From positions 1,815-65,814 of the forward strand of contig DHVB01000062.1 of assembly GCA_002412425.1 (NCBI GenBank): a stretch of DNA of 64,000 nucleotides, written 5' to 3'. The stretch comes from Bacteroidales bacterium UBA5219 (GTDB lineage: Bacteria; Bacteroidota; Bacteroidia; Bacteroidales; ML635J-15). This document shows positions 1 through 60,965 of the stretch, one piece after another (positions within the stretch are counted from its first letter, which is position 1; every line of letters starts with the position of its first letter). Made by a program: the position numbers and the translations under genes. The notes under the pieces are model-generated. The model was given only the letters and a program-made list of their open reading frames with translations. It did not search any database and was not told the DNA's origin.

Positions 1-1
1 T

Positions 2-970
2 ATTGACGAGCCTATCCCTGTTGTTGTAACCACATCCAAATTATTGAGTACAGGCGTTGATGTTCCAACTTGTAAAATCATTGTGCTTTTCCGAATGGTC
101 AACTCTATGACCGAGTTTAAACAAATTGTTGGTAGAGGTACAAGAGTAAGAGAAGACAAGGAAAAACTATTTTTCACCATTCTTGACTATACAGGAAGTG
201 CAACAAGAAACTTTGCCGACCCTGATTTTGATGGTGAACCACCATTAATCACCGAAGATGAAATTGATGATGATGGAAACATAATTGACGGTGATGAATT
301 GGTGCCAGATGATGCCGACACAGGTGATGAAGATTGGGAAGATGAAGACAATGAAGATGATGAGCCACCAACAGGCGGTGAAACAGGTGGTGAACCAAGA
401 AGAAAATACTACATCAGCGAAGGCGAAGTAAGTATTGCAGCGGAGAGTGTTCAAATATTAGACGCGAATGGAAAACTTCGCACTATTCAATTTACACAAT
501 ACGCAAAGGAGCAGATCACTACTCTCTTCCCATCAATAAATGAGTTTAAATCAAAATGGAACAATCTTGAAGAACGTAAACACATTCTTGAAGAGCTTGA
601 AAATAATGGTGTATCAGTAGACCAACTAATGGAGATAACCAGAAACAAAGACGCTGACCCATTTGACTTACTCTGCTTTGTTGCTTTCGATTTGAAACCG
701 CTTACTCGTAAACAACGAGCAGATTTACTGAAAAAGAACAAACCTGACTTGTTTCAAGACCTAAGCGAGAAAGCAAAAGATGTTTTGAACCTTATTTTGG
801 AAAAATATGTGGAATATGGGCCAAATCAATTGAGACCTGATATTATTTCAGTTGACCCAATATCAGAAAAAGGGAACGCTTACGAAATCGTGAATGAATT
901 TGGCGGAATTGACCAATTCAAAAAAATAATAGAAGAAATACAAACCCTGCTTTATGCAGATGCAGCTTAA
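2..970 (+). CDS. hsdR: Type I restriction endonuclease R subunit (HsdR), C-terminal part; 5' end outside window
   Basis: The frame of the 44..970 ORF stays open to the window edge. It has helicase C-terminal motifs (TSKLLSTGVDVP, QIVGRGTRV), then an acidic linker and an EcoEI-type R C-terminal region. Its stop lies 9 nt before the hsdM start. Confidence 0.9.
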   Translation: MDEPIPVVVTTSKLLSTGVDVPTCKIIVLFRMVNSMTEFKQIVGRGTRVREDKEKLFFTILDYTGSATRNFADPDFDGEPPLITEDEIDDDGNIIDGDELVPDDADTGDEDWEDEDNEDDEPPTGGETGGEPRRKYYISEGEVSIAAESVQILDANGKLRTIQFTQYAKEQITTLFPSINEFKSKWNNLEERKHILEELENNGVSVDQLMEITRNKDADPFDLLCFVAFDLKPLTRKQRADLLKKNKPDLFQDLSEKAKDVLNLILEKYVEYGPNQLRPDIISVDPISEKGNAYEIVNEFGGIDQFKKIIEEIQTLLYADAA

Positions 971-979
971 AAGTAAATT

Positions 980-3121
980 ATGGCAAAGACCAAAAAGACA
1001 AAATCAGTAAAACAAGAAACACCAGCTCAAAGGCTATCAGGTATTATCAAAAGTTGTCGCCAAATCATGCGAAAAGACAAAGGCATGAACGGAGATGCGG
1101 ACAGACTACCAATGTTGACTTGGATAATGTTCTTAAAGTTCTTGGATGACAATGAGCAAATGCAAGAAGTAAATGCACAGCTTGAAGGTAAGAAATATAA
1201 ACCTGCAATAGAATCCCCTTATAGATGGCGCGATTGGGCAAAAGATACCAATCTAACAGGTGACGACCTGCTTAATTTCATCAGTAATGAGAAAGTTACT
1301 CTCTCTGACGGTAAAGAAAGAACAGGTTTATTTTACTATTTAAGGAGCTTACAAAGCGAAAGTGGAACGGAACGCAAAGACGTCATTGCAACGGCATTTA
1401 AAGGAATTAGCAACCGCATGATAAATGGGTACTTGCTAAGAGATGTAGTAAATAAAATTGACGGCATTCATTTCACAAATAACGAAGAAATAAATACGCT
1501 TTCGCACTTGTACGAAAGCATCTTGAAGGAAATGAGAGATGCAAGCGGTGATGCAGGTGAATTTTATACACCAAGACCAGTGGTGCGTTTCATGGTTGAA
1601 ATGCTAGCCCCTAAAATTGGTGAAACTGTTTTAGACCCCGCTTCAGGTACAGGTGGGTTCTTAGTTGAAGCCTTTGACTATTTGAAAAAACAGGCTAAAA
1701 CCGTAGAACAGAGACAAACATTACAAAGGAATTCCATTGTTGGAGGTGAACCAAAGTCATTACCCTTTCTGCTTTGTCAAATGAACTTGCTTTTGCATGG
1801 TCTTGAGTATCCAAATATTGATAGCGGTAACAGCCTTCGGTTTCCATTAAAAGACATTGGCGATTCTGAACGTGTAGATGTTATTCTTACCAATCCACCA
1901 TTCGGGGGTGAAGAAGAGAGAGGGATTCTAAACAATTTCCCGAATGATAAGCGAACAGCAGAAACTGCCTTGCTCTTTTTGCAATTGATAATGCGAAAGT
2001 TGAAAAGGAAAAAACCAAATTCAGATGGTGGTCGAGCCGCAGTAGTTGTTCCAAACTCAACTTTGGCAGGAAACGGCATCACAGGCAGAATTTTAAAACA
2101 GCTTATTTCTGATTTCAACCTACATACCGTTGTTCGTCTTGGAGAAGGCGTTTTCGCACCATACACTGACATTCCTTCAAATTTAATTTTCTTCGATACA
2201 ACTAAAAAAACTGATACTGTTTGGTTTTATGAAGTACCAATTCCAAAGGGGAAAAAGAAATACAGTAAATCAAAACCACTTAAATCAGATGAACTAGAAA
2301 AAGTTAAAAAATGGTGGAACAAAAGAGAAGAAAGTGAGAACTCATGGAGTGTCAAGGTTGCCGAATTAGTTCAATCCGAAGATGAAAAAATTGACTTAGA
2401 CCTTAGGAATCCGAATAAAGTAGACCCTTATGAAAATTTGGATGCTAATCTTCTAATCACAAAAGTTAGAGAAGCCATCACGCAAAATCTTGCCTTAATT
2501 ACTCAAATACAAAATGAAATTAGTAATTCTTTGACTGTTAAAACTGTTAGCTTATCTACAGCAATAGAAGAAAGCACTGATTCTGTAGAAGTGAATCCCA
2601 CCGTAATGTATAATTTTGCAGGTGTTTACGGATTTGGGAAAGGACTTTTTAAGCGAGAACCACTTTCAGGTAGCAATACTTCATACAAATCATTTCACAG
2701 GCTACACAAAGATGAAATTGTCATTAGTAAAGTAAAGGGATGGGAAGGCGCTATTGCATTGATTACAGAGGAATTTGATGGATTGTATCTATCTTCTCAA
2801 TATCCGACTTTTAAGGCTAAAGAAGGAGTCAACATTAAATACATAGCTGAGTATTGCAAACACCCTAGAGTTTGGCAGGAACTGCTAGATAAATCAAAAG
2901 GCATAGGTGCAAGAAGAAATTCAATTTCAGTTGACACTTTTTTATCGTTGAAAATCCCGTTACCAGAGTTGGAAGAGCAAGACAAAATTGTAGATGCACT
3001 TGAGAAACTTTCAGAATTGAAGAGAAAGCAATCAGAGCTGAACAAATCACTTGAATTGCTCACGCCAGCAATTTTGGAAACAGCTTTCAATTCTAAACCA
3101 GTTGAAGAAGTAGAAGTATGA
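980..3121 (+). CDS. hsdM: Type I N6-adenine DNA methyltransferase (HsdM) fused to one HsdS-type target recognition domain
   Basis: HsdM N-terminal region (LPMLTWIMFLKFLDD), AdoMet motif DPASGTGGFL and catalytic motif NPPFGG. Residues ~540-713 look like one HsdS TRD plus the conserved helix (LPLPELEEQDKIVDALEKL). There is no stand-alone hsdS in the window. Confidence 0.85.
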   Translation: MAKTKKTKSVKQETPAQRLSGIIKSCRQIMRKDKGMNGDADRLPMLTWIMFLKFLDDNEQMQEVNAQLEGKKYKPAIESPYRWRDWAKDTNLTGDDLLNFISNEKVTLSDGKERTGLFYYLRSLQSESGTERKDVIATAFKGISNRMINGYLLRDVVNKIDGIHFTNNEEINTLSHLYESILKEMRDASGDAGEFYTPRPVVRFMVEMLAPKIGETVLDPASGTGGFLVEAFDYLKKQAKTVEQRQTLQRNSIVGGEPKSLPFLLCQMNLLLHGLEYPNIDSGNSLRFPLKDIGDSERVDVILTNPPFGGEEERGILNNFPNDKRTAETALLFLQLIMRKLKRKKPNSDGGRAAVVVPNSTLAGNGITGRILKQLISDFNLHTVVRLGEGVFAPYTDIPSNLIFFDTTKKTDTVWFYEVPIPKGKKKYSKSKPLKSDELEKVKKWWNKREESENSWSVKVAELVQSEDEKIDLDLRNPNKVDPYENLDANLLITKVREAITQNLALITQIQNEISNSLTVKTVSLSTAIEESTDSVEVNPTVMYNFAGVYGFGKGLFKREPLSGSNTSYKSFHRLHKDEIVISKVKGWEGAIALITEEFDGLYLSSQYPTFKAKEGVNIKYIAEYCKHPRVWQELLDKSKGIGARRNSISVDTFLSLKIPLPELEEQDKIVDALEKLSELKRKQSELNKSLELLTPAILETAFNSKPVEEVEV

Positions 3122-3678
3122 AACCCAAACCATTAACAGCAATTCTATTATTCATAAGTGCTTACTCGCCTTTGTTTTTGATATTGGCAGTAAAGGATTT
3201 TGATTTCTATTGCAGTTACAGTTTTGGGCATCCAGTAGCCATTTCAATCCTTCTTGGCTTATCAGCATTGAGTGTAATACTGCTATTCGTAACTATAGGC
3301 TCAATTAAAAGAGGAAATATGCCTGTTACTGTGAAAGCAGTTAAAAACCGTTCGGTTGATTTAATTAACTACACAATCCCTTACATCGTTTCATTTTTTG
3401 GTTTTGACCTTGCGAAGGTTGAAGACATTATTTCGCTTTCAATATTCCTTTTGTTGCTTTTGCTTCTCACAATAAAAAGCAAGTCTGTATTCATGAACCC
3501 AATCCTACTTTTAGCAGGCTATAATCTTTACGATTTGGAATATGAATATGATGGCAAGCCAACTTCAACAATCGTAATTAGCAAGCATGAAATGAAAGCA
3601 GGAGAAAGATTTTACATAAGGAGCTTAACCCGCTTCTTGTACTTTGTAACAGAAAAAGAGACCACAAATGCCCAATAG
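3118..3678 (+). CDS. Small ~4-TM membrane protein, KwaA-like (candidate Kiwa component)
   Basis: ATGA start/stop overlap with hsdM. Four hydrophobic helices by eye (res ~6-25, 38-60, 82-96, 103-119) plus a soluble tail. The CDS call is strong; the Kiwa assignment rests only on architecture and gene pairing. Confidence 0.6.
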   Translation: MKPKPLTAILLFISAYSPLFLILAVKDFDFYCSYSFGHPVAISILLGLSALSVILLFVTIGSIKRGNMPVTVKAVKNRSVDLINYTIPYIVSFFGFDLAKVEDIISLSIFLLLLLLLTIKSKSVFMNPILLLAGYNLYDLEYEYDGKPTSTIVISKHEMKAGERFYIRSLTRFLYFVTEKETTNAQ

Positions 3679-4624
3679 ACAAAGACAAACGCTAAGACAA
3701 TTAAAAGACCTTGATTTAAGAGGGGCTAATGTGACATTGGCTGTTGTAAAAGAATACAAAAGAGACAGAGTTTCTCAGTACACGGTCAAATACGTTCCAA
3801 TTGACCAAAGACTTGAAACCAGACTAAGAAATATCGTTGTAAACCACATCAACAATTCAAACACAGTTGAAGAATACACCTATGATTGTCCTGAACCCGA
3901 AGAAGACCAGGTAAGGGCTATCAGTTATGAAGAAACTGACTTTTACAGAATATTTGAGCAGCTCGAAGATTTAAACCCAGAGGAAGATATTATTGAGGAT
4001 GTAGAAGAACTTGTAAAGTCCAAAGCCTACATGATAATTCTTCGGAATGCAGAAGGCATTCAAGTTGTCGGTTTCAAAACCCTGCCTGAGAATTGGAGAA
4101 TGAAACGAAACAAAGGTTTGATTCCCCTTTTGTACAACGAAAACCGATTTGAAGATTTAGAACAGGACAACGTTTTCAGTATTTCAAGCATTGTCGACCT
4201 TTTCTATTTTAATGAGTTTCTGTTCATTCTTTCCAAGAAAGATTTTGAAAGAGGCTTGAACTTCCGTGAAGGCATGATTAACAATGCGAACGAACTATAT
4301 CAGGAAGTTACTCAGTTGAACATTTTCGTGAATATGGAAATTCTGACTGACCGAGTTGGAAACAATCAGCGCTACTTAAGGAAAATTGCGACAATCAGAA
4401 ATTTAGGCCATTATAGAAATCCTGTTTACTTGCAGAGATTACAGCAACTAATTGTAACTAAAGGATGGAACATCCAATTTGAAGAAGAACAAATTGTAAT
4501 AACGGACGAGACACTTGACGATATTTTGACTTTGCTTCAAAACAAACGGCTTCATTCAGAATTAACCGAAGAAGATTTTGATGTGGAAAGTACAAAACCA
4601 GTAAACCCCAACGCAAACTTGTAA
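3668..4624 (+). CDS. 318-aa soluble protein, KwaB/DUF4868-like (candidate Kiwa component)
   Basis: 11-nt overlap with the upstream membrane-protein gene. Its size (~315 aa) and its pairing with a small multi-TM protein fit Kiwa. The central region VFSISSIVDLFYFNEFLFILSKKDFERGLNF resembles my recollection of DUF4868; this is not verified by a search. Confidence 0.55.
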   Translation: MPNRQRQTLRQLKDLDLRGANVTLAVVKEYKRDRVSQYTVKYVPIDQRLETRLRNIVVNHINNSNTVEEYTYDCPEPEEDQVRAISYEETDFYRIFEQLEDLNPEEDIIEDVEELVKSKAYMIILRNAEGIQVVGFKTLPENWRMKRNKGLIPLLYNENRFEDLEQDNVFSISSIVDLFYFNEFLFILSKKDFERGLNFREGMINNANELYQEVTQLNIFVNMEILTDRVGNNQRYLRKIATIRNLGHYRNPVYLQRLQQLIVTKGWNIQFEEEQIVITDETLDDILTLLQNKRLHSELTEEDFDVESTKPVNPNANL

Positions 4625-4779
4625 GCACATTTGCAGGTCACACAAAGCCACCGCTCGACCAAAACCTGTAAAAGAGCTTCCAAGTCCCTGCCCGATAAAA
4701 GAGAAATTTTAAGAATGCCCCAATACAAGGAAGATATGAGAATTACCATTGAAATATCGAGAGATGAAGAAGCACGATT

Positions 4780-4913
4780 GCCTAACAGCGTGTATGTGGC
4801 AATAGCGGGTGAAGAGGTAAATCGAAGGTCTATGCTTCTAAGAAACTTTGTGCAAAACGGACAGGAAAGTGCTTCTAATCCGCTACTGCACATACACGCA
4901 AAACGTTACCAGC
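4780..4913 (+). repeat. attC-like imperfect palindrome 0
   Basis: Left box GCCTAAC (4780-4786, fits RYYYAAC). The stem 4788-4808 pairs with 4880-4899 (20 bp, one bulged G4799, one A4802/C4886 mismatch). The loop is ~71 nt. Right box G4905|TTACCAGC. Confidence 0.65.
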
Positions 4914-4933
4914 AATTAGAGTGAAAACAAATT

Positions 4934-5851
4934 ATGAAAGAATATTTCAACTTACAAATAAAATTAATCGGTCGCAAATTTCGAGAAATAGGATTGCATC
5001 CGATTTTAGCTATAATTTTGTTAATGGTAGCTTTAATCGCGTTATCAATTTATGCTTATAAAAAAACGGAATTTGCTCCTTATATTCTTTCATTTCTTGC
5101 ATTATCTTTTATAATGAAATTGTCAGAAGTAAAACGAAATGAATTCCTTAAAACTATTTTTAAATCTAATGAACATATCAAAATCAGGATAATTGAAAAT
5201 TTAATTTTAACTATTCCATTTTTAATCATTCTATTGTTTTTTTATTCTTATTTTGAAGCATCTCTATTACTCTTGATTTCTATAATTTTCGCTATTAAAA
5301 GTATGAAGTCAGATTATAAATTTACGATACCTACACCCTATTTTAAAAAACCTTTTGAATTCACTATTGGATTTAGAAAAACTTTCTATTTAATTCCATT
5401 GGCATATATTCTTACAGTAATTTCAATTTCCGTAAACAATTTTAATTTAGGAATCTTTTCATTTTTACTCGTTTTCGTTGTTTATTTCTCCTATTATTTC
5501 AAACCAGAAGAGGAATATTTTGTTTGGTCATTCGATGCTAATCCAAAATCATTTTTGTTGTATAAAATTAAAACAGCATTAATGCAATCAACCTACTTCG
5601 TTTTGCCAATTGCTTTAACACTTTCCTATTTTTATCTTTCGGAAATCCTACTCGTTTTACTATTTCTAATTATTGGATACACTTTTCTTATATTTTTTAT
5701 CGTGGCTAAATATTCCACATATCCAGATGAAATAGGAATCGTTCAAGGAATCATTTTAGCACTTAGCATTTTCTTTCCTCCAATATTGTTAATGATTATT
5801 CCGTTATTATTTAACCAGTCTCAAAAACGTTTAAATTACTTGTTACAATGA
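4934..5851 (+). CDS. Polytopic membrane protein, probable permease partner of the downstream ABC ATPase
   Basis: 305 aa, very hydrophobic (about 8 helices by eye). ATGA overlap with the ATPase gene at 5848-5851. Confidence 0.7.
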   Translation: MKEYFNLQIKLIGRKFREIGLHPILAIILLMVALIALSIYAYKKTEFAPYILSFLALSFIMKLSEVKRNEFLKTIFKSNEHIKIRIIENLILTIPFLIILLFFYSYFEASLLLLISIIFAIKSMKSDYKFTIPTPYFKKPFEFTIGFRKTFYLIPLAYILTVISISVNNFNLGIFSFLLVFVVYFSYYFKPEEEYFVWSFDANPKSFLLYKIKTALMQSTYFVLPIALTLSYFYLSEILLVLLFLIIGYTFLIFFIVAKYSTYPDEIGIVQGIILALSIFFPPILLMIIPLLFNQSQKRLNYLLQ

Positions 5852-6528
5852 TTGAAATAAAAGATTTAACAAAAAAGTATGGCGATAAAATAGTTTTAAA
5901 AAATATTAACTTGCAATTTAACAAAGGCAAAGTGTATGGAATCGTTGGCGAAAATGGAGCAGGTAAAACGACATTATTTAGATGTATTTCGGGGTTAGAA
6001 AAATACGATGGAGAAATAAAATCGGAACTTAATCCGTTAAAAAATTATATTGGTTTATTGCTTACGAATCCGTATTTCTTTACAAGAATTACTGGACGAG
6101 AGTATTTGCAATTACTATGCAATGCAAGAAAGATTAAAATTGAAGATTTTGAAAAACAAAATATTTTTAATTTGCCATTAAATCAATATGCTTCTACCTA
6201 TTCGACAGGTATGAAAAAGAAATTGGCTATTACTGCCATTTTATTACAAAAAAATAAAGTTTTTATTCTTGATGAACCCTATAATGGCGTCGATATTCAA
6301 AGTAATTTAATAATTACTGAGCTCATTTTAGAATTGAAAAAGTTGAATAAAACTTTAATAATATCATCACATATTTTCTCTACATTGAATGATACTTGTG
6401 ATGAAATTCACTTATTAGAGAAAGGTGAATTAATTAAAACGGTGCAAAAGGAAGATTTTAAAAAATTAGAAGAAGAAATGAAAACAACAGCAATAGGAAA
6501 TAAGGTAAAAAAAATGAACTTAAAATAA
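5848..6528 (+). CDS. ABC transporter ATP-binding protein
   Basis: Walker A GENGAGKTT, signature-like YSTGMKKKL, Walker B VFILDEP. Confidence 0.9.
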   Translation: MIEIKDLTKKYGDKIVLKNINLQFNKGKVYGIVGENGAGKTTLFRCISGLEKYDGEIKSELNPLKNYIGLLLTNPYFFTRITGREYLQLLCNARKIKIEDFEKQNIFNLPLNQYASTYSTGMKKKLAITAILLQKNKVFILDEPYNGVDIQSNLIITELILELKKLNKTLIISSHIFSTLNDTCDEIHLLEKGELIKTVQKEDFKKLEEEMKTTAIGNKVKKMNLK

Positions 6529-6532
6529 AAAA

Positions 6533-6670
6533 GCTGGTAACAAGTCGTTTTACGTCAGGCGGGTTAATCACTTCGTTTCAAAGTTTTTCGTATATTTGAA
6601 CTTTGGTGCTTCGGTTCAAAATTTATGGTAAAGAACCCGCCCGAACGCAAAGCGCCGAAGCGTTCTCGGC
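6533..6670 (+). repeat. attC-like imperfect palindrome 1
   Basis: Left box GCTGGTAAC (6533-6541) begins 5 nt after the ABC stop. The inner clamp 6558-6565 pairs with 6634-6641, with an A6557/C6642 mismatch. The stem extends with a bulge to about 6544/6656. The loop is ~68 nt. Right box G6662|TTCTCGGC. Confidence 0.6.
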
Positions 6671-6695
6671 AATTTATAAACAAAAAACAAATACT

Positions 6696-8654
6696 ATGAA
6701 AAAAACACTGTTATTTGGATTAAGCATGTTAATATGCTTATTAAGTATTTCACAAGAATTACCTCAGTATGCACCTGGACAAATAATAGTTAAGGTCAAG
6801 GGCGATTTGTCTAAAACTTGTGAAAATATTGTCAACCAAGTCCCCACAAAATCAGGGAATGAATTGATTGTAAAAGATTCAATTCTTCAAAAATTCGGTA
6901 TATATAAAATAGAATCCTTGCATTATTTTGATGAGTCTAAAAAAACTTTGTTGAAAAGTGGATCGGAAAAAACATTTGTTTTCTATACCAATGAGACAGA
7001 TTTACCTCAACTAATTGAAAATATTAAAAAAACACCTGATGTAGAAGATGCTTATTTTAACTTTTTATTTATTTCTCATGTTGAACCTGATGATGACAAA
7101 TATGATGATCAATGGTCATTGCCCAAAATAAGTATGCCAGAAGCATGGGATATTCAGAAAGGATGTACAGATTTAAAAATTGCCATACTTGACGTGGGTT
7201 TTAGAGATTTGGAACATAATGATGTAGATGATAAATTTCTGTCAACAAGAAGAGATGAAACAGATATTGATGTCAGTTCATATACAAATAATGGATATTC
7301 AACTGTATCAGGAGAGGATTATACAACACCTGATGATAATCCAGAGGGAGAAAGTTTTCATGGCTTACAGGTTTCAGGTGTTGCTGCTGCAGAAACTAAC
7401 AATAATAAAGGTATAGCCGGAGTTGGATGGGATATTTATATTGTACCTGTCAGATGTGGTTTTACGATTAAGTATTTCGGACAGGAATATGGTCTATTTG
7501 AAATGGATGATATAATACGTGCAATTGATTGGGTAGTTGCAGGTAACAGAGCAAGAGTTATTAATATGAGTTTGGGAGGAATTGCTCCAACAGGAAATGC
7601 CCTTATTGAATATGAAAATTCATTGGAAGCTGCTTATAATAGCGGAATTGTTATTGTTGCATCAAGTGGTAACGACAACAATAATCAAGCTTCTTACCCT
7701 GCTTCATCTCAATTTACAATAGCCGTTGGCGCATCAAATGAGAATGATAATCGTGCAAGTTTTTCAAATTATGGACAAGATTTAGATATTATTGCTCCCG
7801 GAATAAATATTCTTACAGTAAATAGAAAACTAGTTAATCAATATAAAGAAGTTGATGGTACTTCATTCTCTGCTCCTATTGTATCAGGAATTACTGCACT
7901 TATTTTATCTCAAAATCCTGAATTAAATCCCGAACAAGTTAGAGATATATTAAATGAGAGTGCAGACGAGGTAAGTGGCATGAGTGGTCAAAACTTTCAT
8001 GTTGAATATGGTTTTGGTAGAGTAAATGCTAAAAAAGCATTAGAATTTGTGCCAGAAATAAAATATGATATTACTCTAAATAATGAAGTGATTACAGATT
8101 TACAAATTGTTCATGCACAAAACTCCATTACTGCTTCAAATTATTCAGTTGAACCAGGAGCAACGGTAATATTTAAAGCAGGAAATTCCATACATTTAAC
8201 AAATGGATTCCATGCTAAAGCAGGTTCAAATTTTCACGCCTATATTGATGACGTAGGCGTTTCCTGTTCTTCTAAATCATTAAAATCGGGGGAAACGGCA
8301 GGTAATGATACTATTACAAATGACGGAATAATTAAGGAAGAAGAAAATTTGAACAGTAACACTATACCGACCAACGTCATTACATCAGAATCCATGAATA
8401 TAATAGTATTTCCTAATCCTTTTTCAGACAAGGCAACAATACAATTTGAAATAGGAACGAATCCTCAAATAGTTAACATTTATATTAATGACTTGATTGG
8501 CAGAACAATAAAAACAATAGTCAAATCAAACAACAATCCCAATGGAAAATATTCAGTTGATTTTAATTTATCAGGATTTAAACAAGGGATATACTTTGTT
8601 ATTTTAGAAATTGATAAACAGAAATATACTCGTAAAATAATATACAAACACTAA
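6696..8654 (+). CDS. Secreted subtilisin-family (S8) serine peptidase with T9SS C-terminal sorting domain
   Basis: The start is placed at M32 of the 6603 ORF, where a signal peptide begins (MKKTLLFGLSMLICLLSISQ). Catalytic motifs are AILDVGF (D), HGLQVSGVAAA (H) and GTSFSAPIVSG (S). The C-terminus (VFPNPFSDKATIQFE...GIYFVILEI) is typical of a Por/T9SS sorting domain. Confidence 0.9.
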   Translation: MKKTLLFGLSMLICLLSISQELPQYAPGQIIVKVKGDLSKTCENIVNQVPTKSGNELIVKDSILQKFGIYKIESLHYFDESKKTLLKSGSEKTFVFYTNETDLPQLIENIKKTPDVEDAYFNFLFISHVEPDDDKYDDQWSLPKISMPEAWDIQKGCTDLKIAILDVGFRDLEHNDVDDKFLSTRRDETDIDVSSYTNNGYSTVSGEDYTTPDDNPEGESFHGLQVSGVAAAETNNNKGIAGVGWDIYIVPVRCGFTIKYFGQEYGLFEMDDIIRAIDWVVAGNRARVINMSLGGIAPTGNALIEYENSLEAAYNSGIVIVASSGNDNNNQASYPASSQFTIAVGASNENDNRASFSNYGQDLDIIAPGINILTVNRKLVNQYKEVDGTSFSAPIVSGITALILSQNPELNPEQVRDILNESADEVSGMSGQNFHVEYGFGRVNAKKALEFVPEIKYDITLNNEVITDLQIVHAQNSITASNYSVEPGATVIFKAGNSIHLTNGFHAKAGSNFHAYIDDVGVSCSSKSLKSGETAGNDTITNDGIIKEEENLNSNTIPTNVITSESMNIIVFPNPFSDKATIQFEIGTNPQIVNIYINDLIGRTIKTIVKSNNNPNGKYSVDFNLSGFKQGIYFVILEIDKQKYTRKIIYKH

Positions 8655-8666
8655 ATTGACCATTAT

Positions 8667-9257
8667 ATGAAAAAAACCGCATTTACATATTTTATTTTGT
8701 TTCTTATTTCTCTAAATGTCCTTGCTCAAAAAGTAGATAAAAATAATTTCAGTTTAGGTCTTTTTATTGGCGAGGGAACAGGAGTCTTAACAGATTTTAG
8801 TATTAATGATAAATTTGGAATTGAGTGGAATATATCCTATAATGAAATGTTTTATAAATACAGATATACAAACAAATATTCAGATTTTATAAATCAAAAA
8901 TATAACAATATATATAGCTCATCTCTTTTATTAAATTACAGAAACAAATTTATGAATAATAACAAATTAGATTATCATTTTGCTATCGGCAGCCAAATGA
9001 GGATTATTACTGATTTTTATCAGGGAATACCTGTTTTGACACCTCCAAATACTATAATTATTGTTGACCCAACAACAAAAAATAAAATAGATATAGGTAT
9101 TAGTTTATTGATGGGTACTGAATATTGTTTGACTGAAAACATTTCCGTATTCTTTGACTTAGGGACATATATTGAAATAACAGATATTTTTTTATGGTCA
9201 AATTTTCAATTTAGAACAGGATTAATGTATCGTATAAATTATAAAAAGAAAGAATAA
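8667..9257 (+). CDS. Putative outer-membrane beta-barrel protein
   Basis: Signal peptide MKKTAFTYFILFLISLNVLAQ. Alternating aromatic/polar pattern, 196 aa. No recognisable enzyme motifs. Confidence 0.6.
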   Translation: MKKTAFTYFILFLISLNVLAQKVDKNNFSLGLFIGEGTGVLTDFSINDKFGIEWNISYNEMFYKYRYTNKYSDFINQKYNNIYSSSLLLNYRNKFMNNNKLDYHFAIGSQMRIITDFYQGIPVLTPPNTIIIVDPTTKNKIDIGISLLMGTEYCLTENISVFFDLGTYIEITDIFLWSNFQFRTGLMYRINYKKKE

Positions 9258-9260
9258 ACA

Positions 9261-9397
9261 GCCGAGAACAGCAGCTACACGCAAGTGGGGGTTCAGTGCT
9301 TCTATGAAAGTGAAGTGCCAAATCAAAGTTCTGTACTTTTAATGGAGTTCAGTGCTAAAAATCCCCACCTGCGTGTAGCTGCCAACCGTTAGCCAAC
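9261..9397 (+). repeat. attC-like imperfect palindrome 2
   Basis: Left box GCCGAGAAC (9261-9269) begins 4 nt after the stop at 9257. The stem 9271-9290 pairs with 9363-9382 (19/20, with an A9284/C9369 mismatch). The loop is ~72 nt. Right box G9388|TTAGCCAAC. Confidence 0.65.
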
Positions 9398-9642
9398 ATA
9401 TTACAATACGCACCCTTAGTAAAAAAATCGATTTATCCAAATTTTTCATCAAAAATATTTTGTGGTTTGATTTATTATTATTATCATTGCATTATCATTT
9501 CATATCTTATGAAAATTAGGTGTAGTAATATTGTTGTTTTTACTGCTTTTCAACCCAATCCTCTAAAAATAAGCAAATCCACACTAATTTTTTTTGATGA
9601 TTTTAATTCAGCTTTTATTTATTCTCTTAAAAATTAAATATT

Positions 9643-9747
9643 ATGAAAAGAAAACTTTACATGCTAGTATTATTTATGTTTGCTTTCTATTTAGGAGATG
9701 CACAAAGTAATATTATTACTACTACAACAATAGTAAAGTGTTTTTAA
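9643..9747 (+). CDS. Orphan signal-peptide ORF (N-terminus of the downstream S8 peptidase, out of frame)
   Basis: An ATG at 9643 encodes MKRKLYMLVLFMFAFYLGDAQSNIITTTTIVKCF*. The stop lies immediately after a T5 run (9741-9745). One extra T would fuse it to the 9738..12632 frame. Confidence 0.6.
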   Translation: MKRKLYMLVLFMFAFYLGDAQSNIITTTTIVKCF

Positions 9748-12632
9748 ATCTTGACAATTCTAGTGTAACATTAATAACAGAAAATGATTTTCAGAAAAGT
9801 TCTGTTAGTACATTAAATTTTAAAGAATTCAATTTAGAACAAGAAAGTCCAAGTGCTAATTATAAATATTCTAATATTGAATTTCAACAAATACCATCTT
9901 CTGTAGAATATTTTCAAAAAATAAATTTATTAAATTCTAACGCTAAAATAATAAAAGCAAATCCAAATTTCACTAACTCCTTTGGTAAAAAATTTGGATT
10001 ATCAAATTATTTTTATGTAAAATTAAAAAACGCTTCTGATTATCAATTATTGGTTTCAAAAGTATTAGAGAGAAATGTAATTATTGTAGAACAAAATCAA
10101 TTTATGCCGTTATGGTATACATTGAAAATTACTAAAAATACTATTGGAAATACTTTAGAAGTTGCAAATCAATTTTTTGAAACTGGACTATTTGCTTCTA
10201 GTCAGCCTGATTTCCTTTCAGATGATAGATTTTGTAGTAATGACCCAATGTTTGGAAGTTTGTGGGGATTAAATAACACCTCAAACACAAATCATGATAT
10301 AAATATTTGTCAAGCTTGGAATATAACACAGGGAGCCAATGTCAATGTAGCAGTATTAGATCAAGGCATTTTTAAAACACATATTGATTTATATTCAAAT
10401 ATTCATCCATTAAGTTATAACACTGAAACAAACACAAGTCCAAGTCAATTATTTGGTGACCATGGAACGCATTGTGCAGGAACAATAGCAGCAATAAAAG
10501 ATAATAATATTCAGGTTGTTGGAGTATCGCCGTTATCAAAACTTATGGATATTAGTAATTCATTAGCAGGAACTCCAAATAGTAGAATGAAAAGAGCTGA
10601 TGGTATTAATTGGGCTTGGCAAAATGGGGCTGATATTATTAGCAATTCATGGGGGTCTGGCGTGCAATATCAAGTTATTGATGATGCAATAAATAATGCT
10701 CTACAAAATGGAAGAAATGGTAAAGGTACTATAATTGTTTTTGCAACTGGAAACAACAATAATTCAGTCAGCTACCCAGCTAATTCAAATCCAAGTATTC
10801 TTTCTGTTGGTGCAATGACATCTAGTGGTACCAGGTCTAGTTTTTCTAATTATGGAACACAGCTTGATGTTGTTGCTCCTGGAAGTAACATTCTATCAAC
10901 AGTACCAAATAATCAAACTGCAAGTTGGGATGGTACATCAATGGCAACTCCACACGTAGCAGGAGTGGCTGCTTTAATACTTTCCGTAAATCCTTACTTA
11001 TCAGCACAGCAAGTAAGTGATATAATAGAGCAAACTGCTCAAAAAGTTGGAGGTTATGATTACCAAAACCAGCCTAATAGACCAAATGGTACGTGGCACG
11101 AACAAATGGGCTATGGTTTAGTTGATGCCTATGCTGCAGTGAAATTGGCGCAAAATATGTATTCTACAACTTTAGATTTATACATAAAGGACAAACCTGA
11201 TGATATGGGAATTGAACCTAATCCGAACACACAGCTTATGTGGACAAGTAAAGACATATGGATAAGGAATAACGATGACGGTGGATTAACACATCAAAAT
11301 CCTGAATATAGAAGCAATGGAAGTCCAAACTATATTTATGTAAGGATAATTAATAAGAGTAGTGTGCCATCAACAGGTAATGAAATATTAAATCTTAATT
11401 GGGCTAAAGCAAGTACTGCTCTTATTTGGCCTCAAAATTGGGATGGTAGTTTACAAAATTCCGCTGGTTATAACTTAGGTGGCGCCTTTCCTATTTCAAC
11501 AATACCCGTTTTGCAACCTGGCAACGAAACAATAGTTAAAATACCTTGGGTAGTTCCAAATCCCAGTAACTATTCAGACAATAACGAGCCATGGCACTTT
11601 TGTTTATTGGCAAGAATAGATGGTATAGGAGACCCTTTACAGCCAGTATTATCGTCAATAAATGAAATGGCAATAAACGATAATAATGTTGCTTGGACAA
11701 ATATCACAATTGTAGATTTAGAAACAGAAATAACAGGAGCAAGTGTTTTGGTTGCCAACCCATCACAGATACAAAGAACTTTCTTTTTGGAATTACACAA
11801 AGAGGTAAATGAAAGCGGAAAGGCTATTTTTAATGAAGCCGAAGTAAGCCTAAAAATGGATGATGTTTTATATAGTGCATGGGAAAGAGGTGGAAAAATT
11901 GCACAAAAATTAGCTCCAACACAAGAAGAAAAACGAAAATTGGTTAAAGGTGATAATGTTATATTAGACAATATTGCCTTTAATTCAAATGAAATGGGCT
12001 TACTAACTTTAGACTTTAATTTTTTGATAAAAGAGTTAACAGATAAAGACGAATATACCTACCACGTAGTGCAAAAAGATGCTAACACAGGCGAAGTATT
12101 AGGTGGTGAAACTTTTATTATCAGAAAAAGTTCAAGACAGACTTTTGTAGCCGATGCAGGCGATGATAAAGAAGTTGCAAAAAATGAAACCATTACTATA
12201 AGTGCAAAAGATATAAATGAACCTGCGGTTTACAATTGGTATGACAGTAAAGGTGATTTAATTTATCAAGGAAAAGATTTAACCGTTACGGCAGATGTGG
12301 TAGAGAAATATAAACTTGAAGTCATTGCAACTACCGATGGTTTTAAAGATTATGCAAGCATAGGAGTTAAATTTAAACCCAATATCATTGAAAGTATATC
12401 GCCAAATCCTGCTTTAGATAATATTGTAGTAAATTACAAGATAAACGAAGCAAGCTCTGCGTATTTAATGGTCTTAGGATATTACGGAAGTGGCACATCG
12501 TACAATTATATCTTAGATGTCAATTTACAAGAAATACAAATTAACACAAGCAGCTATCAAAATGGATTTTATACTGTTGCTTTAGTTTGTGATGGAGAAA
12601 TTGCAGATGCCAAAACATTATTAAAACAATAA
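9738..12632 (+). CDS. Subtilisin-family (S8) serine peptidase with T9SS C-terminal sorting domain; apparent frameshift removes its signal peptide
   Basis: Catalytic motifs VAVLDQGI (D), HGTHCAGTIAA (H) and GTSMATPHVAGVAAL (S). The C-terminal ISPNPALDNIVVNYK...GFYTVALVCDG is T9SS CTD-like. As listed, the ORF starts at a GTG with no signal peptide. Confidence 0.85.
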   Translation: MFLNLDNSSVTLITENDFQKSSVSTLNFKEFNLEQESPSANYKYSNIEFQQIPSSVEYFQKINLLNSNAKIIKANPNFTNSFGKKFGLSNYFYVKLKNASDYQLLVSKVLERNVIIVEQNQFMPLWYTLKITKNTIGNTLEVANQFFETGLFASSQPDFLSDDRFCSNDPMFGSLWGLNNTSNTNHDINICQAWNITQGANVNVAVLDQGIFKTHIDLYSNIHPLSYNTETNTSPSQLFGDHGTHCAGTIAAIKDNNIQVVGVSPLSKLMDISNSLAGTPNSRMKRADGINWAWQNGADIISNSWGSGVQYQVIDDAINNALQNGRNGKGTIIVFATGNNNNSVSYPANSNPSILSVGAMTSSGTRSSFSNYGTQLDVVAPGSNILSTVPNNQTASWDGTSMATPHVAGVAALILSVNPYLSAQQVSDIIEQTAQKVGGYDYQNQPNRPNGTWHEQMGYGLVDAYAAVKLAQNMYSTTLDLYIKDKPDDMGIEPNPNTQLMWTSKDIWIRNNDDGGLTHQNPEYRSNGSPNYIYVRIINKSSVPSTGNEILNLNWAKASTALIWPQNWDGSLQNSAGYNLGGAFPISTIPVLQPGNETIVKIPWVVPNPSNYSDNNEPWHFCLLARIDGIGDPLQPVLSSINEMAINDNNVAWTNITIVDLETEITGASVLVANPSQIQRTFFLELHKEVNESGKAIFNEAEVSLKMDDVLYSAWERGGKIAQKLAPTQEEKRKLVKGDNVILDNIAFNSNEMGLLTLDFNFLIKELTDKDEYTYHVVQKDANTGEVLGGETFIIRKSSRQTFVADAGDDKEVAKNETITISAKDINEPAVYNWYDSKGDLIYQGKDLTVTADVVEKYKLEVIATTDGFKDYASIGVKFKPNIIESISPNPALDNIVVNYKINEASSAYLMVLGYYGSGTSYNYILDVNLQEIQINTSSYQNGFYTVALVCDGEIADAKTLLKQ

Positions 12633-12661
12633 CATTTCATAACATTTTAAATACAAATATC

Positions 12662-13138
12662 ATGAAGTCAAAAATAATTATAATTTTAATCCTTGGTTCG
12701 TTTCTTTTAATAAACTTTGGTTGCGAAAAAAACGCAGGTGACGATTCTACTCATAGTACATATCCGATAGATATTAGTTTTACTGAAATTGGAAAAGGAG
12801 CATTGTATGGTAATGGAGCAGAGAATATTCCACAACAGAATATTGTTATTACAAATCAAACACAATTCAATGATTTAATTAATTCTATGAATACTGTAAA
12901 TAATGTTTCAAACTCATTCACTGAAACAAGTATTGATTTTAATACATATCAAATTATTGCCGTTTTTAAGGAAGTAAAACCAACAAGTTGGAAAGTTGAA
13001 ATAACCAGTGTTATTGAAAATGCAGAAAACATTACTATTTTAATAATTGAAACTGAAAATGAAAGTACAGTGATAACCCAACCCTTTCACATAGTTAAAA
13101 TTCCAAAGACAACAAAACCAATAGTATTTGAACAATAG
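12662..13138 (+). CDS. Small lipoprotein, PrcB-like (protease-complex partner family)
   Basis: Lipobox LLINFGC. The C-terminal part (YQIIAVFKEVKPTSWKVEITSV...VITQPFHIVKIPK) matches my recollection of the PrcB_C domain found next to subtilisin-type proteases. It sits directly downstream of an S8 peptidase. Confidence 0.55.
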   Translation: MKSKIIIILILGSFLLINFGCEKNAGDDSTHSTYPIDISFTEIGKGALYGNGAENIPQQNIVITNQTQFNDLINSMNTVNNVSNSFTETSIDFNTYQIIAVFKEVKPTSWKVEITSVIENAENITILIIETENESTVITQPFHIVKIPKTTKPIVFEQ

Positions 13139-13144
13139 ATATAC

Positions 13145-13280
13145 GTTGGATAACAATGTATAAACACAATAGCGGGCAAATTGCAAATTTTAATATCCGA
13201 ACTTTGCTTTAATATCTTGCAAGATTTGAATGTTGGTGTTTCAAAGTCCGCTACTGTGTTTATACTAAATCGTTATGGAG
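13145..13280 (+). repeat. attC-like imperfect palindrome 3 (last in array)
   Basis: Left box GTTGGATAAC (13145-13154) begins 7 nt after the stop at 13138. The stem 13158-13175 pairs with 13248-13265 (17/18, with an A13169/C13254 mismatch). The loop is ~70 nt. Right box G13272|TTATGGAG. Confidence 0.65.
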
Positions 13281-13433
13281 ATTATTTGTAAAAATGAGCA
13301 AGACAACTTAGTTGATTTAAAAAGTGAAAACGACATTGTTGTAACACTTAAAAAAATAGAAAAATAACTATTTATACTGTTAAAAGGGAAATGGTAAAAG
13401 TCGAACCGAGCTTGCGAACTCACCGAAGGTAAA

Positions 13434-14411: not shown

Positions 14412-15269
14412 ATGTTAAGATTAGTAATTTTTATTTTTTTAATTAACTCCTATTTAATAGGTTTTGCACAAATTAATATTTCTCGCGGAAGTCAAGCAGA
14501 AATCAATACTTTTTTAAACTCAAAAACTTATATTGTACTAAACAACACATTAATGTCTGACTACAATATGGAAATGAAAGAAGCCATCTTAAAACATTGG
14601 ACAATAACAGATTACGAGTTTATTACTGAATCAGAGTTTAAAAAACACAAATCAAATCCTAAAAATTCTTTTTTGATGATAAACCAAGTTTATTTTGAAA
14701 AAGACAAAACACAAACATTGTTTGATTTTTTAATTTTATGTTTAGGTGGAAATTACAAAACCGTAAACGACATGCCAACTCTTTGTGCCATACCGCTTTG
14801 CTATCATGGTGCTTTGCAAGAAGCATATGCTTATAAATTAGGATTAATGGTAAAATTCACTCAATTACATATAAAAACTTGCAAAAATAATCCAACTATA
14901 AGCGAGGATAAATTAGCAGAATATTATATGAATAAAACAGGTAGTCCTAAAACCAAAACTTTTTATTTATTAAAAGAAGAAGTTGAACCTGAAATTAGAA
15001 CAAAAAATTCTTTTGCTACAGCATATCCATTTAATTTTGAATATGCAGACAAAGAAAAAATTAAAAACTTAATTGACAACAATGATGAAGATGCAATAAT
15101 CCTACATATTTTAGGACCACAAACAAGCAACACACTTTCTTACTGTATAAAAATAATTATTGACACTCAGGAAGGCAATATTTATTATTACGACATGCAC
15201 AAACTGAGCAATAAAAATGCAGACAGATTATTAAAAAGCGATTTAAAGAAATTAGCAAGTAAAAAATGA
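14412..15269 (+). CDS. Hypothetical secreted protein
   Basis: N-terminal signal-like segment MLRLVIFIFLINSYLIGFAQ. 285 aa. The stop overlaps the folC start. Confidence 0.7.
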   Translation: MLRLVIFIFLINSYLIGFAQINISRGSQAEINTFLNSKTYIVLNNTLMSDYNMEMKEAILKHWTITDYEFITESEFKKHKSNPKNSFLMINQVYFEKDKTQTLFDFLILCLGGNYKTVNDMPTLCAIPLCYHGALQEAYAYKLGLMVKFTQLHIKTCKNNPTISEDKLAEYYMNKTGSPKTKTFYLLKEEVEPEIRTKNSFATAYPFNFEYADKEKIKNLIDNNDEDAIILHILGPQTSNTLSYCIKIIIDTQEGNIYYYDMHKLSNKNADRLLKSDLKKLASKK

Positions 15270-60077: not shown

Positions 60078-60965
60078 TTATTGTGCTCTCGGATGAGCTT
60101 GTTTATAAATAGTTTTAATTTTTGAAAATGTATTATGTGTATAAACTTGTGTTGCCGCTAAACTTGTATGTCCTAATAATTCTTTTATTGAATTCAAATC
60201 TGCACCATTGTTCAACATGTGAGTAGCAAAACTATGTCGCAACACGTGAGGAGAACGTTTCTCTAATTGACTTACTAATCCTAAATAATGTTGAATTTTT
60301 CTGTAAACGAAATTTGGATACATTTTTTCGCCTTTATCGGTAACAAATATAAAATCTTTTGCTTCACATGAAAAACCAAAATCACTTTTTTGAGAAACGT
60401 ACAATTTATACATATTATTAATATAGGTATTAAATGGCACTATTCTTTCCTTATTTCCTTTTCCTAAAATTTTTATATTGCCCCTAGAAACATCAATATC
60501 TATATGCTTTAAATTTATCAATTCTGAAAGACGCATTCCAGTATTATAAAAAAGCTCAATCATAAACCTATCTCTAATACCAAAAAAGTCATCTGAAAAC
60601 AAACTAGCATTATCTAAATTGTTCATTTGATTTTCTTGAACAAACTCTGGCAATCTTTTTTTAGCCTTTGGTAACACTATTTTTAGCATAGGGTTTTTAG
60701 AAATATGTCCAAATTTCATTAAATATTTCACGTAAGATTTTAAGCTCGACACTTTCCTATTAATGCTAACTGCTGATAATCCTTGTTCTGACAAAGATGC
60801 TATCCAAGCTCTAATTTTTTGATATTCGGGATTTAATTCATCATCATTTGATTCTACAAATACAAAATTACGAAACTGAATTAAATCTGTTTCGTAAGAA
60901 TTTATTGTATGTTCAGAAAGCCGTTTCTCGTAACGGATATATTTAATGAAATTATTAATATTCAT
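60078..60965 (-). CDS. xerC: Tyrosine site-specific recombinase, XerC/XerD-like
   Basis: C-terminal catalytic region with RHSFATHML and LGHTSLAATQVYTH (R-H-R-Y family). Lies between hpf and rpsU, as is common in Bacteroidota. Confidence 0.85.
   Translation of the reverse strand: MNINNFIKYIRYEKRLSEHTINSYETDLIQFRNFVFVESNDDELNPEYQKIRAWIASLSEQGLSAVSINRKVSSLKSYVKYLMKFGHISKNPMLKIVLPKAKKRLPEFVQENQMNNLDNASLFSDDFFGIRDRFMIELFYNTGMRLSELINLKHIDIDVSRGNIKILGKGNKERIVPFNTYINNMYKLYVSQKSDFGFSCEAKDFIFVTDKGEKMYPNFVYRKIQHYLGLVSQLEKRSPHVLRHSFATHMLNNGADLNSIKELLGHTSLAATQVYTHNTFSKIKTIYKQAHPRAQ

Follow-up and report, generated by a model that had tools for sequence, protein, structure and literature searches.

The 64-kb window analyzed here (the whole 64,000-nt stretch of contig DHVB01000062.1, from Bacteroidales bacterium UBA5219) opens with an array of genes that share one orientation and are separated by four imperfect palindromes of ~148 nt, termed E1 to E4. 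In an original prediction made from the sequence alone, these palindromes had been likened to the attC sites of integrons. A covariance model, R1, was built on five copies (E1-E4 together with E0, from a related contig) and run on the window, where it returned exactly four elements, all on the + strand, with E values from 1e-24 to 5e-28 and at the four positions that had been claimed. Nothing further was found in the window at E < 0.3, except for reverse-strand echoes of the palindromes; core genes come next downstream of E4, and the scan placed no element beyond it. The two cleanest stems were also recovered independently by an inverted-repeat tool, and Rfam contained no family matching the elements at E <= 1. 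The four elements are listed below.

4772..4920, + strand: element E1, attC-like (covariance model 119.4 bits, E = 1e-25); TAAC 4783-4786, stem arms 4788-4808 and 4880-4899, mismatch A4802/C4886, putative crossover G|TT 4905-4907
6527..6677, + strand: element E2, attC-like (covariance model 113.7 bits); AAC end at 6541, mismatch A6557/C6642, putative crossover G|TT 6662-6664
9255..9401, + strand: element E3, attC-like (covariance model 129.2 bits); AAC end 9269, stems 9271-9290 and 9363-9382, mismatch A9284/C9369, putative crossover G|TT 9388-9390
13140..13286, + strand: element E4, attC-like, the final one of the array (covariance model 126.2 bits); AAC end 13154, stems 13158-13175 and 13248-13265, mismatch A13169/C13254, putative crossover G|TT 13272-13274

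The shared architecture that had been described (..TAAC, spacer, stem, ~70-nt loop, return stem, spacer, GTT) was found in all four copies and can be written TAAC-A-[13 bp]-A·C mismatch-[6-8 bp]-~70-nt loop-return stem-RRAAC-GTTA. The window elements have a 5' spacer of 1-4 nt, a stem of ~21 bp and a 3' spacer of 5-7 nt ending in C; E1 carries an extra bulged G, and the pairing of E2 is less clean. The positions given for the A/C mismatch were correct in every copy, and the stop codons at 6528, 9257 and 13138 do sit 4-7 nt ahead of elements 2-4. When the five local copies were aligned, compensatory changes were seen at 14 of the 21 consensus stem pairs, in agreement with the proposal that structure and not sequence is conserved. 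Two details required correction: the example stems attributed to copies 2 and 3 are really from copies 3 and 4, and the GCCTAAC of E1 does not represent a canonical RYYYAAC core, as only T-AAC-A is conserved and the preceding 7 nt are cassette-specific.

Cassettes, platform and distribution

Divided at G|TT, the array yields a defence cassette and three further cassettes.

1..4905, + strand: defence cassette, distal 4.9 kb of a 6.6-kb four-gene unit (Pfam and PADLOC matches); hsdR C-terminal part 44-970, hsdM/hsdS fusion 980-3121, kwaA 3118-3678, kwaB 3668-4624
4906..6662, + strand: cassette 1, 1,757 bp; membrane protein 4934-5851, ABC-type ATPase 5848-6528
6663..9388, + strand: cassette 2, 2,726 bp; S8 subtilase with a type IX secretion system (T9SS) sorting tail 6696-8654, 196-aa protein 8667-9257
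9389..13272, + strand: cassette 3, 3,884 bp; second S8 subtilase 9738-12632, 158-aa protein 12662-13138

The cargo therefore consists of a type I restriction-modification (RM) system and Kiwa in one cassette, an ABC-transporter pair and two subtilase pairs, with an RnlA-type module in a variant of the array. PADLOC made no defence call for the ABC-transporter cassette or the partner proteins of the subtilases, where only generic ATPase and subtilase matches were obtained. In the second subtilase, a signal-peptide-like start at 9644-9745 lies in another frame than the main open reading frame (ORF) at 9738-12632; this frameshift is shared by the identical contigs L001-L003 described below, so that it represents either a pseudogene or a programmed shift.

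A look-up of the HsdM/S protein led to metagenome contigs whose sequence agrees with the window at 100% identity over 13,121 nt (L001). The host, of Bacteroidota/Bacteroidales type and uncultured, is represented in digester and fermentation metagenomes. On these identical contigs, a recombinase gene ends ~1.9 kb upstream of window position 1.

L001:838-1875 (window -2960 to -1923), cassette strand: tyrosine recombinase, 345 aa (identical contigs)

Its stop codon is followed directly in L001 by a TATTTTTG box, then by a small inverted repeat and GTATAAACAA-G|TTAGGCAAC, all on the cassette strand. A NusG/UpxY-like antiterminator gene precedes the recombinase on the same strand (L001:291-812) and was considered as a component of the system, but was rejected, as tblastn matched it only in L001 and L007, which are from the same organism.

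Homologues of this recombinase are numerous (at least 8,000 among the matches listed at E = 1e-20), and family members appear in databases as 'XerD', 'site-specific integrase' or 'tyrosine recombinase/integron integrase'. A genome scan limited to one genome per species provided 80 loci with 55-70% identical recombinases. All of these belong to Bacteroidota, save a few evidently mislabelled metagenome-assembled genomes (MAGs), and the carriers include Flavobacterium, Kaistella, Chryseobacterium, Pedobacter, Chitinophagaceae, Crocinitomicaceae, Spirosoma and Brumimicrobium, among others. R1 matched 153 times in the 80 loci. At E <= 1e-3, 121 elements were found in 235 kb downstream of the recombinases compared to 2 in 604 kb upstream, essentially all of them on the recombinase strand, and at least one element is present in 31 of the 36 loci that have at least 1.5 kb of downstream sequence. 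Arrays reach ~20 elements in 10 kb in F. wongokense, at least 13 in the complete genome of F. mekongense and at least 14 in F. terrisoli. Two Chryseobacterium plasmids also carry the recombinase, one with six elements downstream and the other with one. The pairing of two genes per unit that had been noted is accurate for the window array and peculiar to it, as cassettes elsewhere are mostly single-ORF and 400-6,644 bp long (median 697 bp). The longest ORF of a cassette (n=87) is co-oriented in 73 cases, reversed in 4 and absent in 10, and its stop codon precedes AAC by a median of 18 nt.

Box chain, attI and cassette turnover

With a crossover at G|TT, the end part of a cassette's recombination site would stay at the start of the integrated cassette. 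In each element, the 9-nt box that terminates in AAC (R'') complements the GTT box (R') of the preceding element and not the element's own. A match was scored when the reverse complement of R''(n) agreed with R'(n-1) over at least five consecutive nucleotides beyond GTT; by this measure the chain rule holds for 90% of 87 adjacent pairs from 30+ genomes (mean 7.2 of 9), compared to 7% when R'' is matched to the R' of the same element and 3% when pairs are drawn at random. The window's three junctions all follow it.

E1/E2 junction: E1 R' GTTACCAGC, E2 R'' GCTGGTAAC
E2/E3 junction: E2 R' GTTCTCGGC, E3 R'' GCCGAGAAC
E3/E4 junction: E3 R' GTTAGCCAACAT, E4 R'' ACGTTGGATAAC, two mismatches

Seen from the cassettes, the start of cassette 1, TTACCAGC, is the complement of its own 3' box GCTGGTAA, that of cassette 2, TTCTCGGC, is the complement of GCCGAGAA, and that of cassette 3, TTAGCCAACAT, differs from its own 3' box ACGTTGGATAA by 2 mismatches. 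The defence cassette extends from attI (L001:2059), which is 1,740 nt to the left of the window, up to the G of E1, and its start G|TTAGGCAA is the reverse complement of the E1 box TTGCCTAAC. Since TTAGGCAA complements the R'' box of E1, hsdR-hsdMS-kwaA-kwaB forms a single 6.6-kb cassette reaching from attI to E1. This R''/R' chain is the classical boundary signature of integron cassettes.

The same logic locates the attI. In 29 of 34 loci, the stretch from the recombinase to the first element contains the complement of that element's R'' 9-mer exactly once, and in a 30th locus as an 8-mer, so that the attI adjoining the integrase that an integron has by definition is present at these loci; in 27 loci the match lies 70-145 nt, mostly 95-105, past the recombinase stop. 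Alignment of these sites revealed an invariant TATA, four variable nucleotides and A-GTT-A, with a TAnnTTTG-like box upstream and an inverted repeat whose loop-proximal pairs covary, which gives the attI-like site the form hairpin-TATAnnnnA-G|TTA. The TAnnTTTG box is found between integrase stop and attI in L001 and many other loci; we take this motif to be the Bacteroidetes -7 promoter consensus and the box thus to be a putative cassette promoter. RNAalifold proposed a 5-bp local hairpin alone for the attI alignment. A manually set 16-bp long-range stem was 61.8% paired, compared to 44% in shuffles, mainly through the five loop-proximal pairs; this is moderate support for the stem, and attI is accordingly described as hairpin-capable.

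Variation among metagenome contigs bears directly on cassette movement. A search for the exact 26-nt attI half retrieved nine further contigs. Counting L001-L003, at least 10 unrelated sequences adjoin this one attI half, and they part from one another right after GTT; several of the sequences joined to attI end in family elements. The shared attI half with different followers constitutes direct population-level evidence for cassette replacement at attI. Moreover, attI stands ahead of the RM+Kiwa cassette in L001-L003, where L004-L006 have another cassette with attC E0, and the L004-L006 and L001 versions are identical exactly from GTTAGGCAAC onward. At its other end, L004 leaves the window exactly past the GTT of E1 at 4907 (GTTGTATGCAAG versus GTTACCAGCAAT in the window). 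The RM+Kiwa cassette is thus found in two array contexts, with both breakpoints at G|TT. In a Flavobacterium wongokense array, a 272-bp cassette is present twice (L057:11756-12027 and 14622-14893, 99.6% identical), indicating that cassettes are duplicated within arrays; in this small sample, no cassette sharing between genomes was seen besides such within-array duplication. At the level of sequence, these natural junctions demonstrate that cassettes are exchanged as units, that the crossover lies at or beside G|TT and that new cassettes enter at attI.

The cassette that stands ahead of RM+Kiwa in L004 (L004:1-3662) contains three genes, RnlA-toxin-like, RNase HII-like and tetratricopeptide repeat (TPR), and ends in E0. 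Its start GTTGGCACCAATGC matches its own 3' box at 12 of 14 positions, and the 122 nt before it resemble neither attI nor a standard attC 3' end.

Anatomy of the element and its recombinase

The search of related genomes for more family members, which the original prediction had recommended, gave 126 aligned model matches (125 from the top strand), with strong covariation of the stem. AAC and GTT do not vary. In 123 of 125 members the 5' spacer consists of one A; the 3' spacer reads RRAAC, its C being invariant. The stem comprises 13 bp, then an A (122/125) facing a C (107/123), then ~8 bp, with both mismatch partners present in 107 of 125, so that the mismatch seen in the window is kept across the wider family. 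The fifth stem pair is a conserved T·G (79/125) adjoining an invariant T-A. On this alignment, which was itself fitted to R1, 92.4% of cells are paired, compared to 64.9% in shuffles and at most 44% with slid partners, and double-change cells number 647 versus 175 in shuffles. No conserved extrahelical base was found in these members, as stem insert columns are mostly gaps and only E1 has a bulged G; the conserved A·C mismatch occupies the region where canonical attC sites carry their extrahelical bases. Past the 9-10 matching nucleotides of the R box, R' systematically has an A where the complement of R'' has a G. At this second mismatch the top strand has A·C and the bottom strand a G·T wobble.

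The loop is periodic, being built of four ~18.5-nt direct repeats (e.g. window 9291-9362). Its autocorrelation is highest at 18-19 nt (z = 8-10) and at 37 nt (z = 16), and GTG(C) cores recur near positions 7, 26, 44 and 62. A second, shorter hairpin type was observed at L097:19644-19790, directly after a standard element, and reads AAC-GGCCAGCTCGGCTT...AAGCCGAGCTGGCC-GTT without spacers, with a near-empty cassette between both sites. It was missed by R1 and yet follows the R''/R' chain rule, which indicates that the diversity of sites exceeds the reach of the model.

Canonical attC sites have a thermodynamically favored bottom strand and are rich in G·T pairs (PMC5027507). The expectation that the bottom strand of the present elements would fold better was borne out in part: with native flanks it holds for E2 and E4 and not for E1 and E3, and it becomes consistent once the R box is rebuilt as in a circular cassette. 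Of 87 sites rebuilt in this way and folded as DNA, 84 are more stable as the bottom strand, the mean advantage being 3.4 kcal/mol (p = 1.6e-15). Equal folding energies of both strands, which the original prediction had named as a refuting outcome, were thus not observed. The A·C mismatch, proposed to become a G·T wobble on the bottom strand, is indeed conserved; the top-strand T·G is conserved as well, and the resulting asymmetry in G·T counts is mild (1.70 bottom vs 1.36 top). A G·T bias of this size was rejected as the sole basis of strand choice, being too weak.

A group II intron on a Chryseobacterium sp. SNU WT5 plasmid (NZ_CP041688; L097:20719-22561), recognized by Rfam D1-D4 and domain V matches and by ltrA, lies in opposite orientation inside the R'' of one element. 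On the bottom strand its junction reads stem-T-GT|[GTGTG...intron]|T-ACCTGGAG, an insertion at TGT|T directly 3' of the hairpin, and a 95%-identical intron fragment (L018:12522-12695) lies 1.5 kb past the recombinase of another Chryseobacterium. Group IIC-attC introns likewise insert at the bottom-strand attC hairpin, at TTGT/T and opposite to cassette transcription (PMC7923331). By analogy, the intron target offers an independent hint that the bottom-strand hairpin may form in vivo.

The recombinase contains SAM_4 and Phage_integrase domains. The only model whose cutoff it passed was the generic NCBIfam 'XerA / integron integrase' (224 bits, cutoff 220); the IntI model TIGR02249 gave 195 bits in two stretches (cutoff 265), XerC 190 bits (cutoff 335) and XerD 203 bits (cutoff 330). 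With 148-nt hairpins in arrays and XerC and XerD scores below cutoff, the system differs from a housekeeping Xer acting on a single 28-bp dif. Compared to IntI1 of plasmid R100, ~43 residues corresponding to the IntI-specific I2 insertion are absent, and residues 255-268 of the recombinase (12 residues) occupy the place of residues 188-243 of VchIntIA (2a3v). The protein has in turn a ~55-residue N-terminal domain that IntI1 and XerC do not have, and, like IntI1, carries SP(F/L)D as a C-terminal motif. In the AlphaFold model of a homologue that is 94% identical (mean pLDDT 80), the N-terminal domain forms a small beta-beta-alpha-beta-beta-alpha fold and no inserted helix is seen; the best structural matches of the model are archaeal XerA, then IntI4. 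Profile scans of the window proteins did not reveal an IntI-type protein. A second tyrosine recombinase, XerC-like and 295 aa long, is encoded among core genes at 60078-60965 on the - strand, 47 kb from the array; its scores are 315 bits for XerC and 98 for IntI, and it is presumably a housekeeping Xer outside the cassette system.

Absence of the I2 insertion fits the absence of extrahelical bases, because it is the IntI insertion that contacts those bases (PMC5027507; PMC7790495). With neither the insertion in the enzyme nor conserved extrahelical bases in its sites, strand and site recognition must differ from those of integrons, and may proceed through the conserved mismatches and the extra N-terminal domain. 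The loop repeats may be binding sites for that domain, and together the two features hint, speculatively, at an arm-type interaction. An 'integron-like subgroup' of tyrosine recombinases is described as having members without the insertion, with no link to arrays drawn (PMC8138268).

Interpretation and relation to known systems

We consider it very likely that an uncultured member of Bacteroidota carries a chromosomal integron-like platform here, in which the elements are attC-type sites separating mobile cassettes. The proposal that attC-like sites bound mobile cassettes is supported by the box chain, the linked recombinase, the confinement of the elements to its downstream side, the attI, the junctions at G|TT and the folding of the strands; a weak recognition of a genuine attC by R1, described below, points the same way. 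The array is one of co-oriented cassettes, each with a 3' attC and a 5' core complementing its own inverse core, as in integrons, and the palindromes, with conserved AAC and GTT and structure kept over sequence, have the architecture of attC sites. As the recombinase lacks the I2 insertion and carries an extra N-terminal domain, the platform is an integron by function and not a canonical one; it is a separate kind of integron-like system and not a member of the known integron family.

The folded bottom strand of the element would, by analogy with integrons, be the substrate of the recombinase. In the circular cassette, this strand would present two duplex arms of 11-13 bp, both with a terminal G·T wobble: one would be the R box (N7-TAAC/GTTA-N7), the other the initial 13 bp of the stem. 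The arms would flank an asymmetric unpaired spacer of 1 nt and 5 nt, a fold that would resemble a Xer-type core site, and cleavage would fall within AA|C of the bottom strand. Mismatches, instead of extrahelical bases, would guide strand choice, and cassettes would be read from the promoter adjoining attI.

Several observations weigh against this interpretation. The window itself lacks the recombinase, and the upstream part of its own genome (attI or a further cassette) lies outside it; we infer recombination activity from population polymorphism. The I2 insertion is described as essential for single-strand attC recombination by IntI (PMC8138268; PMC7790495), so that a single-strand mechanism is not guaranteed for a recombinase without it. 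The strand asymmetry is also less than clear-cut: E1 and E3 are slightly more stable as top strand with their native flanks, the difference in G·T counts is mild, the conserved T·G pair favors the top strand, and in the integrated array the own R box of each element pairs over ~4 bp only. Finally, the covariation counts depend on an alignment fitted to R1.

The same cassettes could in principle be exchanged as double strands, as Xer does at dif or pdif, with the hairpin serving mRNA stability, processing or termination. A recombinase without the I2 helix that is tied to single-strand recombination, XerA as its best structural match and conserved top-strand T·G wobbles that would suit a coding-strand RNA helix all speak in favor of this explanation. 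However, R'' and R' are ~120 nt apart, so that a two-arm core site could arise only by folding, and R'' and the adjacent stem arm are not mutual inverted repeats, leaving no duplex core visible. Only the bottom strand turns the A·C mismatches into G·T, and that strand is not transcribed along with the cassettes; a T-run after the stems is absent from the window elements. Added to the more stable bottom strand in 84 of 87 sites and the intron targeting of the bottom-strand hairpin, these points make double-strand exchange unlikely. A further alternative is a canonical integron remnant (CALIN), in which the elements would be ordinary attC sites served in trans by an IntI encoded elsewhere and the adjacent Xer-like gene would be unrelated. 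The architecture of the elements and their G|TT boundaries are indeed those of attC sites, and R1 run on In2 of plasmid R100 picked out as its best match the genuine aadA1 attC, albeit weakly (13.4 bits, E = 0.05). This explanation is nevertheless very improbable, because of the strict linkage to an I2-less recombinase and its attI: about 30 independent genomes have an adjacent, co-oriented Xer/IntI-like recombinase with an attI matching the first cassette. In addition, the window scans showed no IntI-type protein, and IntegronFinder surveys report practically no integrons or CALINs in Bacteroidetes, although cultured Flavobacterium carry these arrays.

There remains a family of REP/BIME-like palindromes or terminators with no role in gene mobility, as the original prediction had itself considered. 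The elements are intergenic, palindromic and located just past stop codons, as such a family would be, but they are confined to the downstream side of the recombinase and not dispersed (2 upstream matches against 121 downstream, and four in the 64-kb window), and they have no Rfam match. Such a family also cannot account for the R''/R' chain or the polymorphic G|TT junctions, and we regard it as extremely improbable. As to the attC-type platform, a wider proposal, on which we remain evenly divided, is that it belongs to a second, undescribed integron lineage that is phylum-wide in Bacteroidota, both chromosomal and plasmid-borne, backed by at least thousands of recombinase homologues, whose integrase never had or has lost I2, recombines folded single-stranded hairpins and reads mismatches, and whose N-terminal domain may dock on the four 18.5-nt loop repeats.

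The closest parallels are sedentary chromosomal integrons such as the Vibrio cholerae superintegron (120-130-nt VCR attC, IntIA), where a tyrosine recombinase, attI and promoter (a putative one in the present platform) are followed by a co-oriented array. As in that superintegron, cassettes mostly have a single ORF and the site is a long imperfect palindrome from ..AAC to GTT.. with a putative crossover at G|TT. Shared with Vibrio-type integrons are also the conservation of structure over sequence, a bottom strand favored by G·T/A·C asymmetry and folding energy, defence cargo, duplication within arrays, and group II introns reversed at the bottom-strand hairpin. Unlike integrons, the present recombinase has no ~43-residue I2, bears an extra ~55-residue beta-rich N-terminal domain and is transcribed in the direction of the cassettes. 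Its sites have no conserved extrahelical bases and instead a near-invariant A·C 13 bp into the stem and another at R-box position 11; the R box is 10-12 bp and cassette-specific, compared to the 7-nt RYYYAAC consensus of canonical attC. The spacer is asymmetric, 1 nt on one side and 5 nt on the other, a C is invariant before GTT, and the loop consists of four ~18.5-nt repeats. The attI has a covarying inverted repeat, and the host is a member of Bacteroidota.

Xer-based systems show partial similarities. In CTX phage, XerCD, which lack I2, recombine a folded single-strand hairpin, attP(+), with two arms and an unpaired center, at dif1. Unlike that phage, which brings one genome into dif by means of the housekeeping XerC/XerD, the platform described here has a dedicated paralogue beside an array of many cassettes. 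Likewise, the pdif modules of Acinetobacter plasmids (PMC7399989) are small sets of genes that have Xer-type (XerC/XerD) sites at their borders and occur in varied contexts. Their sites are 28-bp duplexes of alternating orientation, without a hairpin, a dedicated integrase, an attI or a unidirectional array.

The statement that integrons are rarely described in Bacteroidota agrees with published surveys, which report a near absence. With IntegronFinder 2.0, only In0 elements and one complete integron, in Salinibacter ruber, were found in Bacteroidetes, and no such arrays were reported in Flavobacteriia (PMC9024848); a 2024 preprint places Bacteroidota among integron-free clades (bioRxiv 10.1101/2024.07.02.601686). 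No prior description of the present system was found in the full-text literature outside subscription journals. We thus appear to be dealing with an undescribed, widespread Bacteroidota class of integron-like elements with a non-IntI recombinase.

Integron biology has been built on the single family IntI, with the I2 insertion regarded as the innovation that enabled single-strand attC recombination. The complete capture-and-array system seen here in Flavobacteriia, Sphingobacteriia, Chitinophagia, Cytophagia-type and Bacteroidales-like genomes and in Chryseobacterium plasmids runs on an I2-less recombinase and a different attC grammar. If the second integron lineage proposed above is real, hairpin-based cassette capture would be independent of the I2 innovation, and the cassette pool of a major phylum would have been overlooked by integron-finding tools. 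Confirmation of the system would open up a large hidden pool of cassettes (type I RM+Kiwa, RnlA-type defence, secreted proteases, transporters), would make the evolution of hairpin-site recombination from Xer-type enzymes testable and would provide a second, orthogonal structure-specific recombination system for engineering, Bacteroidota included.

The array also accounts for the frequent assembly breaks just past a 'XerD-like' gene. Of the 80 contigs, 28 stop within 300 nt past the recombinase stop codon, as is expected where assembly meets a variable or repetitive array. A 2.1-kb contig with an identical recombinase (L007, DAOPNM010000048.1) is placed in a MAG labelled 'archaeon', and another homologue (L022) in a MAG labelled Bifidobacterium; both labels are probably binning errors at a locus that is hard to assemble.

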